From: Mustelus asterias
Lineage: Eukaryota
Reading direction: 5' to 3'
NCBI RefSeq assembly: GCF_964213995.1
Contig: NC_135817.1
Coordinates: forward strand, 44,268,001 to 44,332,000
DNA: 64,000 nucleotides
Shown: positions 2,549 through 62,590 of the stretch, one piece after another
How positions within the stretch are numbered: position 1 is the first letter of the stretch
Layout of the letters: every line of letters begins with the position of its first letter
Notes under the pieces: model-generated
Told to the model about the DNA's origin: nothing
Database searches by the model: none
What the model saw: the letters and a program-made list of their open reading frames with translations, nothing else
Position numbers and translations under genes: made by a program

Positions 2549-3077
2549 TGCAGCAAGCACCCAGACTCTCTACCTCCAAACATAGTTATGGCAAGCCCGG
2601 AGCACAGGTTCAGACTATGTATCCACCCATACCTCCTGGCCCACACTGGCCTCAAACCTGAAAGTCTTACACCCACAGCCTGCCACAAGTTCCCAGATAT
2701 GGACTGAGACTGCAGCTGCATCAGGATGTGCTTCTTGTTCCACCCACTTCTGTAGTCTAGTCTCAGCCCTACCCCCTAAGTAATCAGAATAACAGAACTA
2801 TTAGAGCACATAAGGAGGCCATTTGGTCCATTGTGTCTGCACTGGCTCTCCAAATGAGCATTATGAGTTACTGTCATTCTCCTGCCTTTTCCCCATATCC
2901 TTACATAATATTTCTATTCGAATAATCATCTAATGCCTCCTTGAATGCCTCAACTGAAATTGCCTCCACCACTCTGCCAGGCAGCACATTCCAGGCTTGA
3001 ACAACTAACATTTACTTCTTTTGCAAATCACTTTAAATCTGTACCCTCTTTGTTCTCAATCCTTTTATGAGCAGGAA

Positions 3078-3875
3078 TAATTTCAATCCTGATAAATGCG
3101 AAGTGATGCATTTTGGTAGAAATAATGTAGGGAGGAGCTATACGATAAATGGCAGAACCATAAAGGGTGTAGATACGCAGAGGGACCTGGGTGTGCAAGT
3201 CCACAGATCCTTGAAGGTGACGTCACAGGTGGAGAAGGTGGTGAAGAAGGCATATGGCATACTTGCCTTTATAGGACGGGGCATAGAGTATAAAAGTTGG
3301 GGTCTGATGTTGCAGATGTATAGAACGTTGGTTCGGCCGCATTTGGAATACTGCGTCCAGTTCTGGTCACCACACTACCAGAAGGACGTGGAGGCTTTGG
3401 AGAGAGTACAGAGGAAGTTTACCAGGATGTTGCCTGATATGGAGGGACTTAGTTATGAGGAGAGATTGGGTAAACTGGGGTTGTTCTCCCTGGAAAGATG
3501 GAGGATGAGGGGAGACTTAATAGAGGTGTATAAAATTATGAAAGGCATAGATAGGGTGAACGGTGGGAAGCTTTTCCCCAGGTCGGTGGTGACGTTCACG
3601 AGGGGTCATAGGTTCAAGGTGAAAGGGGGGAGGTTTCACACAGATATCAGAAGGACATATTTTACACAGAGGGTGGTGGGGGCCTGGAATGCGCTGCCAG
3701 GCAAGGTGGTGGAGGCAGACACACTGGGAACGTTTAAGACTTATCTAGATAGCCACATGAATGGAGTGGGAATGGAGAGATACAAAAGAATGGTCTAGTT
3801 TGGACCAGGGAGCGGCACGTCTTGGAGGGCCGAAGGGCCTGTTCCTGTGCTGTATTGTTCTTTGTTCTTTGTTCT
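3078..3875 (+). mobile_element. Young CR1/HER1-type LINE, 5'-truncated (subfamily A)
   Basis: Open ORF2 C-terminus (FNPDKCEVMHFG...LVRPHLEYCVQFWSPH...RGDLIEVYKIM), 3' UTR gggccgaagggcctgtt and (ttctttg)n tail. Confidence 0.95.
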
Positions 3876-4040
3876 CCCAATCTACTCTGTCCAGACCCCT
3901 CATGATTGTGAACATCTCTATCAGATCTCCTCTTTGCCTTCTCCCCTCCCAGGAGAACAGTCCCAAATCTATCCTCATATCTGAAGTTTCTCATTCCTGG
4001 AACCAGTCTTGTAAACCTCTTCTGCACTCTCTCCAATGCA

Positions 4041-5010
4041 AACAACAAAGAAAATTACTGCACAGGAACAGGCCCTTCGGCCCTCCAAGCCTGCACCGAC
4101 CATGCTGCCTGACTTAACTAAAACCACCTACCCTTCCAGGGACCATATCCCTCTATTCCCATCCTATTCATGTACTTGTCAAGATGCCCCTTAAAAGTCA
4201 CTACCGTATTCGCTTCCACTACCTCCCCCGGCAACGAGTTCCAGGCACCCACTACTCTCTGTGTAAAAAATCTGCCTCGTACATCTCCTTTAAACCTTGC
4301 CCCTCACATCTTTAACCTATGCCCCCTAGTAATTGACTCTTTCACCCTGGGAAAAAGCTTCTGACTATCCACTCTGTCCATGCCTCTCATAATCTTGCAG
4401 ACTTCTATCAGGTCTCCCCTCAACCTCCGTCGCTCCAGTGAGAACAAACCAAGTTTCTCCAACCTCTCCTCATAGCTAATGCCCTCCATACCAGGCAACA
4501 TCCTGGTAAATCTTTTCTGTACCCTCTCCAAAGCCTCCACATCCTTCTGGTAGTGTGGGGACCAGAATTGAACACTATATTCCAAGTGCGGCCTAACTAA
4601 GGTTCTATAAAGCTGCAACATGACTTGCCAATTTTTAAACTCAATACCCCGGCCAATGAAGGCAAGCATGCCGTATGCCTTCTTGACTACCTTCTCCATC
4701 TGCATTGCCACTTCCAGTGACCTATGTACCTGTACACCCAGGTCCCTTTGCCTATCAATACTCTTCAGGGTTCTGCCATTTACTGTATATTTCCTATCTG
4801 TATTAGACCTTCCACAATGCATTACCTCACATTTGTCTGGATTAAACTCCATCTGCCATCTCTCCGCTTAAGTCTCCAACTGATCTATATCCTGCTGCAT
4901 CCTCTGATGGTCCTCATCGCTATCTGCAAATCCACCAACCTTTGTGTCGTCTGCAAACTTAGTAATCAATCCAGTTACATTTTCCTCCAAGTCATTTATA
5001 TATATATATA
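4041..5010 (-). mobile_element. CR1-type LINE, 5'-truncated
   Basis: ORF 4304-4852 with RT C-terminal motifs. The 3' tail is at 4041-4090. Confidence 0.95.
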
Positions 5011-5821
5011 AATGATTTGGAGGAATCATTTCACATAATTGCTATAATTTGGTGCCCAGAACTGTATACAATATTCCAGCTGAGGTCTAACTAATGTCTT
5101 GCATATGTTCAGCACAATCTCCTTGTTGAATGATGAAAATGACAGAACACACACACTAACAATTTAGCTTTTACCTATAGAGCACAAGAATTAGGAGCAG
5201 GAGTAGGCTATGCGATCTCTCAACCTGCTCTGTCATTCGATAAGATCATGGATGGTGTAATTATAGCCTCAACGCCACTTTCTTGTCAGCCCCCAATAAC
5301 CATCCCCTCCCTTGTCAACGAAAATATCTGAGGCTGAATTAGATTTTTGAACTACCCAACCTCCAGCAGCAGATGACAGTGGCAGGTCTATAGGTATGAG
5401 GGCTCTTGATAATATTCACAAGCTCTACTAGTTTTTAAAAGGTAATGTCAATTATCCTAAGGAAAACAATGATAATATTTCAATAAAAAAATGAGAATAC
5501 AGCTAATATGTCAAAATTACAGATAAACTCAGAAATCTAGTGACAGCAGAAATAAAGTTATTGATAGTAAAGAATATATTTAGTTCTTAATCCAGATGAA
5601 CATCCTGTCTCCTTTTCTAGCTTCGGTAAACTGACAGTAGATGGTTTTGCAAAGTTCAACTGCTAATCCCATATGGATAAGGGATTCCAAATTAATCTGC
5701 TCAGAATTCTCAGATTTGGAAGGCCAGAAAATGGATGACGTGAGACAATTCACGTTCTAGTAAGATATTCTCTTCCAATATTCGGTTCCAGGTGCCCAAA
5801 GAGTAGAAGTTTAAAATGAAA

Positions 5822-13200: not shown

Positions 13201-13607
13201 GGGAGTCCAGAGCCCACAGGGAGTCCGACATCAAACTAATATCAGTGACCATGGAACTGGTCAGCTTGTGTTCAGGCATTGCTGCTGGCCAGAATAACTA
13301 CCAGGAGTTTGTATTCAAGGGGAAGATGATCCCTAATTGATTAAATGAGCAGGAAAAGGAGATCAGTATTCTCCGAGACACTGGCTGTTTACAAACATGC
13401 CTGAGAGGGAGATTAAAGAACTGCCACACAATAGCAGGGTTAATTTCTAAAAGTTAATCAAGGGACTCAACAGAAGTGAGCCTAGAGGTGTCACTGGTAA
13501 AAATTTACTTGCAGAGTGAGCTCATTATGGGACTAGTAACAGTGGGTGTAATCCCATGCAAGGAGCCAACATTCAGTTGGAAAATGACCTTGCAGGCTGA
13601 AAGGTAA

Positions 13608-14531
13608 TAAGAAATAGGAGCAGGAGTAGGCCATCTAGCCCCTCGAGCCTGCCCCGCCATTCAATAAGATCATGGCTGATCTGAAGTGGATCAGTTCCAC
13701 TTACCCGCCTGCTCCCCATAACCCTTAATTCCCCTACCGATCAGAAATCCATCTATCCGCGACTTAAACATATTCAACGAGGTAGCCTCCACCACTTCAG
13801 TGGGCAGAGAATTCCAGAGATTCACCACCCTCTGAGAGAAGAAGTTCCACCTCAACTCTGTCCTAAACTGACCCCCCTTTATTTTGAGGCTGTGCCCTCT
13901 AGTTCTGGTTTCCTTTCTAAGTGGAAAGAATCTCTCCACTTCTACCCTATCTAGCCCCTTCATTATCTTATATGCCTCTATAAGATCCCACCTCAGCCTT
14001 CTAAACTCCAACGAGTACAAACCCAATCTGCTCAATCTCTCCTCATAATCTACACCCCTCATCTCTGGCACCAACCTGGTGAACCTTCACTGCACTCCCT
14101 CCAAGGCCAATATATCCTTTCGCAAGTAAGGGGACCAAAACTGCACACAGTATTCCAGCTGCGGCCTCACCAATGCCTTGTACAGATGCAACAAGACTTC
14201 TCTGCTTTTATATTCTATCCCCCTCGCGATAAATGCCAACATCCTATTTGCCTTCTTGATCACCTGTTGTACTTGCAGACTGAGTTTTTGCGACTCATGC
14301 ACAAGGACCCCCAGGTCCCTTTGCACAGTAGCATGTTGTAATTTTTTTCCATTTAAATAATAATCCAATTTGCTATTATTTCTTCCAAAGTGAATAACCT
14401 CACATTTGCCAACGTTATACTCCATCTGCCAGATCCTCGCCCACTCACTCAGCCTATTCAAATCTCTCTGCAGACCTTCCACTTCCTCCACGCAATTCAC
14501 TTTCCCACTTATCTTCATGTCGTCAGCAAAT
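13608..14531 (-). mobile_element. CR1-type LINE 3' part nested in the Gypsy remnant
   Basis: FADDMKISG...LEYCVQFWSPYLRKDILALEGVQ and the downstream ORF 13691-14074. The 3' end is ...gcctactcctgctcctatttcttat. Confidence 0.93.
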
Positions 14532-16417
14532 AGCCCTGAAAGATCCAGGATAGTCCAGAGAGGCTTATTACAAGGATGTGTTTTTTTTAAAAAGTATATG
14601 CAATTTAGAACTCTTTTTTTCTGGCTAAGTTTTAATAAATAAATTGTAGTCATATTACAATAATGGAGCACTGGCAGCCAGTTACAATATTAAACTTGCT
14701 TTCCACAAGTGGGATGAAAAGGAAGAAACACGCAAATTCTTTGGAGAGTGTGGAAAGCCCGATTTCCTTTGGCATTTACACTATCCTGAAACTTTTCAAA
14801 AGTTTCTGAAGTGAGACATTAAAATGAAATTACTTAGCAGCAGGCATGGATTAAATGAATATTCAGTCAGCAGGACTTTCAGAACTGTTTACCAAGCCAG
14901 AGAGATGACAGAATGCTGTACTGAAAGGTCTCAAAGAAGATGTTTCCCCTCTCTCCTTCTCTCGAAAGTGTTGTGCCCAGGTTTGCAAAGTAACCATCCT
15001 GACGCAAGAACTCTACTGCAAACTGAGATCTTTTGGGGAAAAACATGGAAATGTGCTCTGTGCGATTCAACCCAGGAAGACAACTGAACAAAACGGTCAC
15101 AATATGGAATTACCATGTCAAGACAAGCCAAAGGACAGCTAACCTGTATACTCGTTTATTTTATCTTCACACAGTAAAAAAAAAGCTTTAAGCCTACTCT
15201 TATTCAACCATCGGTACTCAGGAGTGTGAGGCCCCAGGGAGTGTATGTGATGTATGAATGGTTGTTGCAATTTATCTAGTTTTTTTCATTAATTTGGGAA
15301 GTAGTTTCAATAAACGTATCTTGGCCTTTGTTTAAACTCGGAAACCTTGTCTAATTCTTTCTAACCTGAAAGTGTAAATAGCAGGATTCCTGCAGTATTG
15401 GCAAAGCACATTCTCTCTAACAGTGTCCATCAATCCAATATTTGGGTCACTCTGTTCATGTCTTTTAAACTGCATGGGTCCTTCCTTGATCTCTTTTAAC
15501 TCTACTGCCCTGGCCTTGACCTTTACGTCGAGAAATTGTTACGGTCAGACCTGGACTGGAAGAATAGGGTCATTCTTACCCCACCTCACATGGTCATAAC
15601 AGGCTGAAAAGGCAAGAGGAAGTTTCTCTAGGGGTGCAGAACACTGAAAAAGATTCAGAGGCCTTGCAAAGGGCAATAAAACATGTGAGGGCTGAAGAGG
15701 TTATGGAAAAGCCTGAGTCAGCAGAGGCCAGGGCCAGGCCAGTCGTATTAGAAAGAAGCAGAAGTGAGACTGTTGAGTTAAAAGAAGCAGAAATCTGCCA
15801 AGTGTTCAGAAGGAGAAACCAAAGAAGTTAAAAGGATGAGGCCAGACCAGTGGGGTTAAAAAAACGTCAAGGAAGAAACCAAGCAGTTTAAAAAGATTAA
15901 CTGAGTGACTCAAATATTCGATTGTTAGACACTTCATTTCATATTTAAATGGAGACCAGCGAAGTTTCCAAGCAGACAAGGAGATGGTGAGAGAGAAGCC
16001 CTACATAGTTGATGAGCTACAGTGTGGGGGAGGGGTATAGCAGGAATTGAACAACGACCTGTAGGCAGTAATGTTCCAGAGAACATGGAACAGGTTTGAG
16101 GGAAATCCTTTCCCAAGAGAAAAAAGAAAGGGAAGCGAACATACCCCAAACCCAATGCAACATTTGGAGACCCTAAGGGGTAAACCAGCAAAATCCAAGA
16201 GGAGTTATCACTGGTAAATCAAATGAGTAACCTCAAGTTTTAAACCCCAACAAACCCAGCAATGTAGAGGCTAAGTCCTCCACAAGTGAGGTGCAGAAAG
16301 CAAGTCTAGACAGTGTACCAAGGCTTCAAATCAAATTACAACCCACCAACTTCCTAGAAGTCAGATTTGTAAAGATGCCTGAACCTAAGCAATTAAATCC
16401 ATGGCTTATAGAAGTGT

Positions 16418-31609: not shown

Positions 31610-34600
31610 TCTTGGGACTGCAATTGTTTACGATTTACATAGTTGATTTGGAGTTGGGGACCAAGTGTAATGTGTCAAAATTTGCAGATGATACTAAGAT
31701 GGGTGGCAGAGCAAATTGTGCAGAGGACGCTGAAAGTCTGCAAAGGGATATAGATAGTCTAAGTGAGTGGGCGAGGGTCTAGCAGATGGAGTACAATGTT
31801 GGTGAATGTGAGATCATTCATTTTGGTAGGAATAACAGCAAAATGGACTATTAGTTAAATGGTAAAAAATTGCAGCATGCTGCTGTGCAGAGGGACCTGG
31901 GTGTCCTTGTGCAAGAATCACAAAGAGTTGGTTTGCAGATGCAGCAGGTAATTAAGAAGGCAAATGGAATTTTGTCCTTCATTGCTAGAGGGATGGAGTT
32001 TAAAAACAGCGAGGTTATGTTGCAGCTGTATAAGGTGCTGGTGAGGCCACACCTGGAATACTGTGTACAGTTTTGGTCTCCTTACTTGAGAAAGAATATA
32101 CTGGCATTGGAGGGGGTGCAGAGGAGATTCACTAAGTTGATTCCGGAGTTGAGAGGGTTGGTTTATGATGAGAGATTGAGTAGACTGGGGCTATACTCAT
32201 TGGAATTCAGAAGAATGAGGGGAGATCTTATAGCAATGTATAAGATTACAAAGAACAAAGAACAGTACAGCACAGGAAACAGGCCCTTCGGCTCTCCAAG
32301 CCTGTGCCGCTCCTTGGTCCAACGAGACCAATCGTTTGTATCCCTCCATTCCCAGGCTGCTCATGTGACTATCCAGGTAAGTCTTAAACGATGTCAGCGT
32401 GCCTGCCTCCACCACCCTACTTGGCAGCGCATTCCAGGCCCCCACCACCCTCTGTGTAAAAAACATCCCTCTGATGTCTGAGTTATACTTCGCCCCTCTC
32501 ACCTTGAGCCTGTGACCCCTCGTGATCGTCACCTCCGACCTGGGAAAAAGCTTCCCACTGTTCACCCTATCTATCCCCTTCATAATCTTGTACACCTCTA
32601 TTAGATCTCCCCTCATTCTCTGTCTTTCCAGGGAGAACAACCCCAGTTTACCCAATCTCTCCTCATAGCTAAGACCCTCCATACCAGGCAACATCCTGGT
32701 AAACCTTCTCTGCACTCTCTCTAACGCCTCCACGTCCTTCTGGTAGTGTGGCGACCAGAACTGGACGCAGTACTCCAAATGTGGCCTAACCAGCGTTCTA
32801 TACAGCTGCATCATCAGACTCCAGCTTTTATACTCTATACCCCGTCCTATAAAGGCAAGCATACCATATGCCTTCTTCACCACCTTCTCCACCTGTGTTG
32901 CCACCTTCAAGGATTTGTGAACTTGCACACCTAGGTCCCTCTGTGTTTCTATACTCCTGATGACTCTGCCATTTATTGTATAACTCCTCCCTACATTAGT
33001 TCTTCCAAAATGCATCACTTCGCATTTATCCGGATTAAACTCCATCTGCCACCTCTCCACCCAATTTTCCAGCCTATCTATATCCTGCTGTATTGCCCGA
33101 CAATGCTCTTCGCTATCCGCAAGTCCAGCCATCTTCGTGTCATCCGCAAAGTTGCTGATTACACCAGTTACACCTTCTTCCAAATCATTTATATATATCA
33201 CAAATAGCAGAGGTCCCAGTACAGAGCCCTGCGGAACACCACTGGTCACAGACCTCCAGCCGGAAAAAGACCCTTCGACCACTACCCTCTGTCTCCTATG
33301 GCCAAGCCAGTTCTCCACCCATCTAGCCACTTCTCCTTGTATCCCATGAGCCTTAACCTTCTTAACCAACCTGCCATGTGGGACTTTGTCAAATGCCTTA
33401 CTGAAATCCATATAGACGACATCCACGGCCCTGCCTTCATCAACCGTTTTTGTCACTTCCTCAAAGAACTCCACCAAATTTGTAAGGCACGACCTCCCTC
33501 TTACAAAACCATGCTGTCTGTCACTAATGAGATTGTTCCGTTCTAAATGCACATACATCCTGTCTCTAAGAATCCTCTCCAACAACTTCCCTACCACGGA
33601 CGTCAAGCTCACCGGCCTATAATTTCCTGGGTTATCCCTGCTACCCTTCTTAAACAACGGGACCACATTCGCTATCCTCCCATCCTCAGGGACCTCACCC
33701 GTGTCCAAAGAAGCGACAAAGATTTCCATCAGAGGCCCAGCAATTTCATCTCTCGTCTCCCTGAGCAGTCGAGGATAGATGCCATCAGGCCCTGGGGCTT
33801 TGTCAGTTTTAATGTTCCCTAAAAAACCTAACACTTCCTCTCTTGTAATGGAGATTTTCTCTAACGGGTCAACACCTCCCTCCGAGACACTCCCGGTTAA
33901 CACGCCCCTCTCCCTCGTGAATACCGATGCAAAGTATTCATTTAGGATCTCCACTATTCCCTTGGGTTCTAAGCATAATTCCCCTCCTTTGTCCCTGAGA
34001 GGTCCGATTTTCTCCCTGACAACTCTTTTGTTCCTAACGTATGAATAGAATGCCTTAGGATTCTCCTTAATCCTGCCTGCCAAGAACATTTCGTGACCTC
34101 TTTTTGCCCTTCTAACTCCCTGTTTGAGTTATTTCCTACTCTCTCTGTATTCCTCCAGCGCTCCATCTGTTTTCAGTTGCCTGGACTTAACGTACGCCTC
34201 CCTTTTCATTTTAATCAGATCCTCAATTTCCCTGGTTATCCACGGCTCTCGAATCCTACCTTTCCTATCTTTCCTTTTTACAGGCACATGCCTATCCTGC
34301 TATTGTGAAGGGAAAAGATGAGATAGAAGCAGGGAAGTTGTTTCCATTGGCGGGTGAAAGTAGAACTAGGGGGGCATGGCCTCAAAATAAGGAGGAACAG
34401 ATTCAGGACTGAGTTGAGGAGGAACTTCTTCACACAAAGGATTGTGAATCTGTGGAATTCCCTGCCCAGTGAAACAGTTGAGGCTACCTCATTGAATGTT
34501 TTTAAGGCAAGGATAGATAAATTTTTGAACAGTAAAGGAATTAAGGATTATGGTGAGTGGACGGGTAAGTGGAGCTGAGTCCACCAAAATATCAGCCATG

Positions 34601-53075: not shown

Positions 53076-53574
53076 ATGTGGCTGCAATACAGAGGATATG
53101 CTGGGCCATGAGGGTACAGATTGTGGTTGAATACAATTCTGCTGCTGCTAATGGCCCATAGTGCATCATGGATCCCAGTTTTGAGCTGCTAGATCTGTTC
53201 TGAATCTAATCCATTTAGCACGGTGGTAGTGCCACACAGTAGACTATATCCTCAATGTGAAGTCAGGGCTGGGTAATGGTCACAATTACCAATACTGTAA
53301 TTGACAGATGCTTCCGCAGTAGATCAGTGAGAACATGGTCTTGTAGGTTTTCCTTCTTGTTGCCTCTCTCAATATCAAGCAGAGACTTAGTCTGGCAGCA
53401 ATGTATGTGGGGGCACAGTCAGCTCAGTCAGTACTGGTGTTACAAAACATCTTTTGGTGATGGGCATTGAAATGCCCAACCCAGAATTCAACATGAAGGA
53501 ACACTGATTCATCAGCTAGGAAGGGTGCTAGATGCTTACCAGCAGGGTGTTTCCTTGTCCATGTTTGACCTAAT

Positions 53575-53932
53575 TTTTTAAAAAATACTTTTCCAATTCA
53601 ATCAAATCAAATCCAATTCAGAGTCTCAACAAGTTGAGACATTTCCGATCCAGGCTGACAAGACAGGGCAGGCGACCAAACCACCCTGTCCTGGGCCCGA
53701 TCTACATGAGCCAAACTGATTGGAGAAGGGGGAGGTTCCCACTCCAAGACTTGGGCTCATTTGCATCTTAGCCAAAAGGCCAAGATGCCGCTTTTAAAAA
53801 TTGCTTCATATGAAACATATGAAGCCCCAGCGCAACCCAATGACCTCAACCAAGTGCAGCATCCTCTCCATGCTACACCTGATCTTAGCCAAAAGGCCGA
53901 GAAATACTACACTTGATCTTAGCCAAAAGGCC
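53575..53932 (-). mobile_element. U2 snRNA-headed short retroposon (SINEU/Keno-like non-autonomous element)
   Basis: 16-bp TSD ccatgtttgacctaat at 53559-53574 and 53931-53946. The 5' end is two tandem U2 fragments, a third U2 stem-loop I copy is internal, and the 3' end is A-rich. Confidence 0.8.
53870..53932 (-). pseudogene. RNU2: Two tandem U2 snRNA 5' fragments (U2 nt ~11-39 and ~6-39)
   Basis: Minus strand GGCCTTTTGGCTAAGATCAAGTGTAGTAT then TTCTCGGCCTTTTGGCTAAGATCAgGTGTAGcAT, matching the conserved U2 5' end. Confidence 0.92.
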
Positions 53933-54901
53933 ATGTTTGACCTAATGCCATAAGATTTGATGTGGTCTGAGGTCAATGGTGAGGGCTCCTGGAGTCACTC
54001 CAGCCTGTACAACCTGTACTCACTGCCACCACTTCTGGCGAATCTGCCCTGCACTGGAATGGTGATGGAGGAGTCCAGGACATTTGCTCTAAGGAATGAT
54101 TGAATGAGTATGACTATGTCGGGATGCTGTTGTACAATCACGACACTGGTCCAGAGATGTGAGAGGACTTTGCAGGATTGACTGGGCAAATTGTGCCTTT
54201 TTTATTTCCGGTACCTAGGTCAATGCCAGGTGGTCAGTCTGATTTTTCTGCCTCAGTTTGGTACAGCTGAGTGGGTTGCTAGGTCATTTCAGACACAGGC
54301 CAGACCAGGGAAGGACGGCAGATTTCCAGTATCTGACAGCATAAAGGTATAAGGGCAAGTTTGGGGTGAGGCAGTGGGGAAGCACAAAATGTGCATGGTT
54401 ACACCAACAGTGGCTTGTAATCCAAAGAGATTGTGGGATGAAAGCAGGATGAGGAGGATTAATTATGGGTATACTGCCATTGTCAATGGTTTTAGCCACA
54501 ATGCTGGCCATTCCCTTAGATTTTTCCAGTACTCTCTTCTTCAGGGGGTAAACACATGCAGTTGTGCCTGACCCCTGCTGATTTGCTACTGCTGCCACCT
54601 AGTATGGGTCACCTTATCCAGCAAAAGAGGAGTGCATTTGTCAGTGAGTGTGAAGCACTATGTTTGGGTGATGTGCCTGCCACAGTTGAACAGCTGGCAG
54701 TATATGGCAGTTATGAAATGTGAGGGTGTGGCTGGCAACAATGCTAAGTGTGTAAGGGTGAGATGGGATCATGAAGGTAAATATGAGTTGTGTTTGATAC
54801 AAGCTTTTGTTCGATGAATGATGAGGATTTGATCCATTGGGCAGTATGTGAGACTATTGGTGCGATAGTAGCGTTTGGTATATGATTATATATTCACTAA
54901 T

Positions 54902-61692: not shown

Positions 61693-62040
61693 TTGTGCTG
61701 CAGGCAGCGGCCACTGGAAGCAATGGCGAGGTTGTACATGGAACGGTCAATGGGAACATCTTCCTGGCAATGCCAGCCAGGGTGGTGGCTGAACAGGTAC
61801 ACACCATAGAGTGGGTGTATGTGAGTTCCAGCACCCGGCGCTCCATCGTTCAGTTCATATCGGATAAGGGCAACCAGGTGCCACATTGGTTCAGCGGCTA
61901 CCGTCTCCGGGCACAGATCTACCCTAACGGCACTCTCTCTCTCCGAAACGTCACGCTGAACGATTCGGGGACATATTCCTGCACCGTCACAGCTCACAGT
62001 GGAGAGGAGTTTACCCAGGACACCATAGTGAAGGTGATCG
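61693..62040 (+). CDS. Ig V-set domain exon of a CD2/SLAM/HEPACAM/CEACAM-like surface glycoprotein
   Basis: Acceptor ctctttcag and donor G|gtgagt, 348 nt, phase 1-1. Motifs IEW, R...YPNGTLSLRNVTLNDSGTYSC and three N-glycan sequons (NGT, NVT, NDS). Confidence 0.9.
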
Positions 62041-62590
62041 GTGAGTACACCTACCTATTCGGTGTTAAATGCAGGTGAAATTAAAACACTAATTAATCAT
62101 TGCAGTCCTTGAAACGAATTTGTATTAATTTTCATAAAATAAAACTATTGGGGGAACATAATTGTAACTTGTCAAACTTCAGAGGTATCTGAAGATTGCA
62201 GATATACAAATTCAATATTACGAAGGGCGGTGTTAGCTTATTCCCCTGCAATTAAATGTTTGGAGCAAAATGTTTTTGACATTTTTGAAACGCAGTTGAT
62301 TGAGCCTCATAGGTTGCATATGCATCTTTGGCATCCATATCCATCTTTCACAGAACCTAGATTACTGAATAGACCAGATAAGATCATGGTCCTTACCTCC
62401 AGAGCTCGTTCCTTAATTCATTGCGATCCAGTTTCAGAAATGTAAATACTTCCACTGGGGAGAAGCTGAGCTGTGATTCTCCCACTCACAACCCCTTCCA
62501 CTCTGGGATATTTCCGTAAAAAGCTCATCCTCAAAACTGAATGACATTTAAAATCCTGCCACACCTCACATTTCTTACAGTCTAGACTTT

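Follow-up and report, generated by a model that had tools for sequence, protein, structure and literature searches.

A SINEU-type element of a houndshark, likely mobilised by a Keno-like Tx1 LINE of relaxed specificity, with invaded U2 genes as its likely sites of transcription

The window, a 64,000-nucleotide stretch of the Mustelus asterias genome, carries an insert that is a member of a young, dispersed, multi-thousand-copy houndshark family. We take this family to be a SINEU-type element, likely mobilised by a Keno-like Tx1 LINE of relaxed specificity and likely transcribed from U2 genes invaded at nt 38/39, and place the probability of this reading, which draws on genomic sequence, at about two-thirds. 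A preliminary description of the window had proposed a non-autonomous element transcribed from a parasitised U2 gene and mobilised by an L1/Tx1-type enzyme, and this overall interpretation is supported by the DNA evidence, namely the family itself, the Tx1 LINE and the copies lying within U2 genes.

Structure of the insert

The insert measures 356 nt (53575-53930, minus strand) and is bounded by identical 16-nt direct repeats, which confirms the exact 16-bp target-site duplication (TSD) around ~360 bp of the preliminary description (Table 1). The two U2 5' fragments noted at its head, said to end near nt 37-39, were likewise confirmed; both stop at U2 nt 39, directly after the branch-point recognition sequence. 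An A tail is present at the end but is short, with ~5 A following a T run. The characterisation of the remainder as a non-U2 body held for most of its length, but a third U2 segment and an antisense copy of the head are found inside it. In a sister copy (L005), this antisense copy forms the start of the body and is degenerate, being 17/31 identical; 9 of the 14 differences between head and antisense arm are A>G or C>T, with G-U pairing retained. The RNA fold of the window insert gave a z score of -9.08, and none of 100 shuffles was as stable. Because of this fold, and because a 33-mer from the body has 1,814 exact matches in the genome against 0 for the reversed control, the insert is not a chance arrangement.

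Table 1. Parts of the insert and its flanking repeats, in window coordinates
Feature	Position	Strand	Evidence
TSD, element's 5' side, 16 nt	53931-53946		identical to 53559-53574
Additional U2 piece (U2 nt 13-39), a 5' extension seen in few family members	53904-53930	-	27/27 vs the genome's U2 gene
Element's own U2 head, U2 nt 6-39, 2 substitutions	53870-53903	-	32/34 vs the genome's U2 gene
Fold-back arm, complementary to the head; long hairpin predicted, branch-point recognition sequence buried	53832-53862	-	fold prediction and alignment
Internal U2 stem-I-like hairpin, U2 nt 4-27	53765-53788	-	22/24
Hairpin-rich body	53593-53869	-	no match to tRNA, another Rfam family or the Tx1 LINE beyond the U2 motif
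3' end: short motif common to the Tx1 terminus, T run, short A tail	53575-53592	-	
TSD, element's 3' side	53559-53574		identical to 53931-53946

Candidate sources for the body were also considered. No tRNA or other Rfam RNA from which it might derive was found in the window insert and its sister copies, and comparison with the Tx1 LINE and with U2 spacers gave no match beyond the U2 motif. No tRNA was found in four SINE loci examined, and one SINE copy, which has four internal T runs, gave no match to A- and B-box patterns; the lack of an internal Pol III promoter and the presence of oligo-T stretches, as judged from these loci and this copy, are traits of SINEU. An older SINE 5' half, 77% identical, was observed at C1:112.24 Mb (L328/L329), where the internal U2-like hairpin runs on as U2 nt 4-94 and then passes into another LINE-like sequence. 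This locus suggests that the hairpin inside the body is the remnant of a second U2 head and that the SINE may be a dimer.

Elsewhere in the window, an Ig V-set exon of an uncharacterised shark gene (61716-62072, plus strand) shows 69% identity to a protein from a catshark; it is encoded on the strand opposite to the SINE, which is located 8 kb upstream. The window also contains, in many places, reverse transcriptase (RT) fragments that appear CR1-like from their motifs and short palindromic repeats (e.g. 3037-5014, 13607-14689 and 31678-34128), which form a background unrelated to the SINE.

A young and dispersed family

A search of the genome with the body returned 2,086 first-look candidates, of which the 40 with the highest scores are 96-100% identical and are spread over many chromosomes. 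A pattern spanning the head-body junction had 2,101 genome matches (reversed control 0), and in C1 the 33-mer was also present in 32 of the first 100 junction matches. The union of the two marks amounts to at least ~3,200 copies, with a rough estimate of ~5,500 that rests on the 33-mer and junction marks, which are not independent. The multi-copy U2-headed family that had been suspected is thereby borne out, and the possibility of a one-off chimeric retrocopy is ruled out by the genome-wide copies of both body and junction.

Individual copies were sampled from the first 96 matches to the 33-mer on C1, which gave 89 loci read and 94 copies. A U2 head, the U1/U2-derived 5' trait of SINEU, was present in 73 of the 94, the remainder being mostly 5'-truncated. 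The head ended at U2 nt 37/38 in 69 of these 73 and started at nt 1 in 12 and at nt 1-7 in 47, so that the normal copy has one head comprising U2 nt 1-37/38. TSDs were found in 34/73 headed copies, against 40/1,440 shuffled pairings, and none was found in the other 39. More than 99% of copies are dispersed outside U2 genes. As a short (<500 bp), non-coding, multi-copy unit with a 3' A tail, the element has the general make-up of a SINEU.

The likely partner LINE

A search for zf-RVT domains gave 1,389 candidates, of which 150 were scored, and all 22 loci read belong to a single Tx1-type family (86-100% match). Its ORF2 of ~1,140 aa encodes AP endonuclease, RT and zf-RVT domains, its ORF1 encodes ZCCHC3-like RNA-binding domains and a zinc knuckle, and its 5' end also bears a U2 head. 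Relatives include the zebrafish 'transposon TX1 149 kDa protein' (44%), and no protein named Keno is among the 120 matches listed. When either tail was searched for next to U2 nt 39, 28 instances were found, 23 from Tx1 and 5 from the SINE; 15 of the 23 Tx1 tails belong to one amplified 8-kb tandem unit. An autonomous Tx1 element with an AP endonuclease, whose 3' ends adjoin U2 nt 39, is therefore present at the U2 site, as had been anticipated. This element and the SINE have the site in common, but their 3' ends agree over only ~7 nt near the tail, and no LINE among those read has the SINE body in common.

The 3' junction of both Keno and Utopia lies at U2 nt 39, according to sections of PMC4640811 and PMC6136364. 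With its AP-type endonuclease, RT and Tx1-type ORF layout, and with 23 tails at a junction that corresponds to the downstream target given for KenoDr1 in sections of PMC6136364, the shark LINE resembles Keno. It differs in that insertion is not specific to U2 genes; 596 exact 3' ends were found genome-wide, mostly dispersed, against 23 at U2 nt 39, and the LINE is therefore called Keno-like and relaxed. The SINE in turn has no coding sequence and did not arise from the LINE by deletion. Utopia uses the same U2 nt 38/39 site, with 20-bp TSDs in reptiles and weakened specificity in crocodilians, but it is described as having a restriction-like endonuclease (sections of PMC4640811), whereas ORF2 of the shark LINE combines AP endonuclease, RT and zf-RVT.

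At C24:44.81-44.94 Mb (L091, L038-L052, L082-L090), an 8,035-bp tandem unit is present in ~16 near-identical copies, each with one intact U2 gene and one near-full Tx1 at U2 nt 39 flanked by a 20-nt duplication; ORF2 of this Tx1 is split into two frames. This array is a LINE amplified together with a U2 array.

SINE and LINE also occur side by side. A SINE lies within 3.3 kb at 7 of 21 Tx1 loci, against ~0.005 expected per locus, at least two SINE pieces occur at 25 of the 89 SINE loci, and adjacent pairs are on the same strand in 29 cases and inverted in 2. Judged by the common U2 nt 38/39 target and by head-to-tail stacking, Tx1 mobilisation, a further trait of SINEU, appears probable here. 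Nick sites were compared in 122 headed copies, 46 of which had a TSD of at least 8 nt; removal of 9 lying behind another element's tail left 37, and of these 34 had an A run, a proportion that is partly by construction. The A run was preceded by GT at 8 of 34 sites (background 5.9%, p = 6e-4, uncorrected) and by GC at 6 more, so that the dispersed SINE sites resemble the U2 site.

It is highly unlikely that another, L1-type enzyme moves the dispersed copies by way of the A tail, with the Tx1 LINE accounting only for the few copies in U2 genes. The A-rich nick sites and the scant 3' homology between SINE and Tx1 would fit such an enzyme, and other LINE families may exist beyond the 150 scored zf-RVT candidates. 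Yet every zf-RVT locus read belongs to one family that is itself mostly dispersed, SINE and Tx1 are stacked head to tail, and the dispersed sites retain a GTA/GCA bias like that of the U2 site, all of which argues for the Tx1 LINE as the likely partner.

U2 genes invaded by SINE and LINE

Two classes of U2 gene were distinguished, a 1,833-bp array on C24 and a 448-bp unit on C1, C7, C8, C14 and C21, in which intact genes score 175 bits. The 448-bp class is 89-90% identical to the main U2, has different upstream DNA and occurs in small clusters on at least five chromosomes (L307, C21:28.08 Mb; L293, L298, L302, L318), most of which are heavily invaded by Tx1 and SINE.

Copies inserted in U2 genes at about nt 37-39, which the preliminary description had suggested looking for, were found: in five cases the SINE follows U2 upstream DNA in register. 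One is an array gene at C24:43.06 Mb whose upstream DNA is intact and in which U2 1-39 is followed by a SINE body with its tail, then by U2 39-54, a truncated Tx1, U2 39-54 again, a further SINE and U2 39-191; the head of the first SINE is the gene's own start. The other four (C1:80.33, C8:80.29, C14:62.23 and C21:28.06 Mb) stand behind ~200 nt of upstream DNA of the 448-bp unit, and Tx1 copies are likewise found in register behind such DNA. From their position, the upstream regions of these loci would be working promoters, and putative PSE and 3'-box likenesses were noted. The C24 in-register SINE is damaged and is at most 94.5% identical to other copies. The C14 copy is 99.0% identical, gap-free, to a dispersed copy and is the only in-register locus with relatives at 98-99%; either member of this pair may be the ancestor.

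Of 27 C24 array starts read, 17 were intact, 9 were scarred by stacked head fragments at the nt 38/39 site and 1 was SINE-fused. At C24:43.02-43.055 Mb (L362-L365), nt 38-50 are replaced by one or two tandem head fragments while the upstream DNA is intact, and this state accounts for the 9 scarred genes; scarred U2 genes are spreading in the array. On C7 (56.56 Mb; L318:2548-2846, reverse strand), U2 upstream DNA leads into U2 nt 1-39 and then, with nothing in between, into the final ~270 nt of Tx1, a fusion that from its sequence would be a ready-made new U2-headed non-autonomous element.

Traces of U2 genes are also seen among dispersed copies. U2 upstream flank, 5-93 nt before +1, was found at 11 dispersed SINE loci; it lies inside a 12-18-nt TSD in 5, is ambiguous in 1 and has no TSD that could be found in 5. 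An extra U2 piece is present in 8 of these 11, far above the family rate. Two further loci have TSDs that enclose U2 sequence on the far side of the SINE. At L326 the TSD takes in the head and body together with U2 39-191 and 3' flank of the gene, and at L114 it takes in U2 33-53, SINE and U2 39-58. Both could be SINE insertions into older U2 retrocopies, and U2 retrocopies with 3' flank do exist (L341).

Predicted fold and probable editing of the RNA

In 172 of 180 copies, U2 nt 33-37 were predicted to be paired. Sequence variation mostly keeps pairs by one-sided change, and compensatory change was confined to 2 of 90 predicted pairs, so that the fold is to be regarded as predicted rather than proven. 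A strong predicted fold in which stems are conserved and loops vary, together with an AT-rich stretch that the Rfam alignment places at the Sm-site region of U2, would also be expected of a domesticated U2-like small RNA gene whose copies are plain processed pseudogenes. This we consider extremely improbable: many sub-types coexist, differing mainly in the hairpin loops, no homogeneous gene array of the SINE was seen, and the in-register copies differ among themselves and have Tx1 insertions and broken U2 genes as neighbours.

Clustered A>G changes were found in 4 of 215 copies (7/0, 6/1, 9/1 and 18/4 against all other changes), whereas no copy among the 215 had clustered T>C, G>A or C>T. Clusters were noted at L169, L152, L313, L011 and L023, with up to 18 changes in ~90 nt. 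The changed A is preceded by T (0.24) in preference to G (0.07) and is followed by G (0.19), in agreement with the neighbour preference of ADAR. The clusters indicate a probable ADAR-like signature fixed by retrotransposition, and hence passage through double-stranded RNA. Across the body as a whole, A>G (123/10,609) exceeds T>C (125/14,856) only modestly (p = 0.01) and not significantly in the 31 youngest copies, and the editing reading is therefore based on the clustered cases.

Origin of the stacked heads

One search found 38 stacks genome-wide with a gap of at most 30 nt, and a second, overlapping with it, found 33 matches, 17 of them Tx1 in the C24 arrays. Taken together there are ~55 stacks against >3,200 copies, which is under ~2% and rules out tandem heads as the norm of the family. 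In 52 stacked junctions, the end of the upstream piece falls within U2 nt 36-58; this set includes two rows cut short by a mismatch, two loci that contribute a pair of rows each and a few Tx1 junctions. No end lay past nt 58, in a search that reached ~nt 95. Within U2 genes, the TSDs that remain extend to nt 52, 53, 54 and 58. Inside a U2 gene at L301, U2 39-53 is followed by 32 nt of flank and a second head.

The preliminary description attributed the stacked heads to repeated re-insertion into U2. In favour of this, re-insertion followed by transcription fits the range of end points, which matches that of the in-gene TSDs, and the intermediate at L301; on the other side, the stacked junctions are nearly all unique and often microhomologous, and these junctions and the extra pieces on flank carriers fit template jumping equally well. 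Template switching is therefore a live source of extra heads, and it has been invoked for the 5' extensions of crocodile SINEU-2 (sections of PMC4494074). It belongs to a wider alternative on the lines of Kojima's SINEU, in which the family and its Tx1 partner are the same but source copies are passively transcribed, either by read-through or from promoters of neighbouring host genes or transposons. On this view extra heads arise by RT jumping onto U2 RNA, and a copy that lands in a U2 gene, the former target of the enzyme, has reached a dead end. The heavy A>G editing across loops at L169 suggests long duplexes, as in host transcripts, and would suit such passive transcription. If the stacks instead came from U2 genes, their uniqueness calls for a large number of short-lived sources, each leaving about one descendant, and the extra pieces on flank carriers are easier to explain by template jumping. 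The flank-carrying templates, moreover, began upstream of +1, so that they show the locus of origin but not that the copy's own promoter was used.

Several observations make this alternative rather unlikely. The stacks halt at nt 58, the limit of the in-gene TSDs, although the search reached well beyond it, the head ends coincide with the nick site, and head starts pile up toward nt 1. U2-gene upstream DNA is found inside TSD-bounded copies, and a stacked intermediate sits within a U2 gene. These points argue for transcription from invaded U2 genes, in which use of the snRNA promoter is inferred. Counted against that preferred reading are the ~7 nt common to the SINE and LINE 3' ends, the few compensatory pairs, the damage to the C24 in-register copy, the residence of >99% of copies outside U2 genes and the TSDs missing from 39/73 headed copies.

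Discussion

A course of events that would join these observations is as follows. The LINE endonuclease would nick U2 genes precisely and other DNA loosely, at sites resembling GTA/GCA. A SINE arriving in a U2 gene has a head that corresponds to nt 1-38 of the gene itself, and for this reason the 5' junction could close without a duplication, leaving a promoter-bearing source gene. Where the junction is imprecise, U2 nt 1 to 38-58 would be left in front, and later progeny would carry stacked heads such as those of the window insert. Within the arrays, loss or homogenisation would remove invaded genes, and new ones would take their place. Being predicted to hide the bases that pair with the branch point, the fold-back arm may prevent the RNA from behaving like a defective U2. 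In its fullest form this would be a self-renewing promoter-capture cycle, for and against which we see about equal odds: the head is the upstream half of the LINE target, each strike on U2 would rebuild a promoter-driven source, relaxed targeting would scatter thousands of promoter-less progeny, and masking of the branch-point-pairing bases would allow the host to tolerate the RNA.

A partial parallel is provided by R2 and its short non-autonomous derivatives, which are promoter-less and form the 5' junction through homology to the upstream target. They are confined to rDNA, where Pol I transcribes them along with the target gene and a ribozyme sets them free. The shark element would resemble them in lacking a promoter, in transcription from the target gene and in upstream target homology at the 5' junction, but it is U2-headed and overwhelmingly dispersed. 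Co-transcription of R2 elements with the target gene is cited in sections of PMC4494074.

The closest described elements are SINEU-1, -2 and -3, which are known from crocodilians; the sections of Kojima (2015, PMC4494074) that treat them report none detected outside crocodilians, describe them as without an internal promoter and leave their mode of transcription as an open question. They have in common with the shark element a length of <500 bp, a U2-derived head, an A tail, oligo-T stretches, snRNA pieces added repeatedly at the 5' end and tandem insertions, as well as a Tx1 partner related to Keno that also has U1/U2 heads (sections of PMC4494074). The differences are the shark host and the target, which for crocodilian SINEU is by preference Mariner-N4 (Mariner-N4_AMi; sections of PMC4494074) and for the shark SINE the U2 gene itself; in addition, the shark head ends at the Keno site and copies lie in register behind U2 upstream DNA. 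The shark element thus shows the general features of SINEU that were examined and is likened to SINEU-1/-2/-3 by description. No shark SINEU or Keno-dependent SINE was found in the literature searched, whose coverage lay outside Repbase Reports and most subscription papers. Compared with published descriptions, what is new in this SINEU-type element is that its head corresponds to the upstream half of the site targeted by its likely partner, and that candidate source genes can be named.

These findings provide a young shark family, its likely enzyme and five named loci with the SINE in place of the U2 gene body, and with these five in-register loci the question of transcription becomes directly testable. 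They also show that conflict continues at a gene whose splicing RNA is essential, since of the 27 array genes read, 10 are scarred or invaded at the nt 38/39 site. In addition, they offer a small non-coding cargo that appears to be placed at a defined sequence by an endonuclease-guided LINE. If true, the promoter-capture cycle would be a general recipe for the origin and transcription of snRNA-headed SINEs, and the L318 fusion would be such a birth caught in the act.
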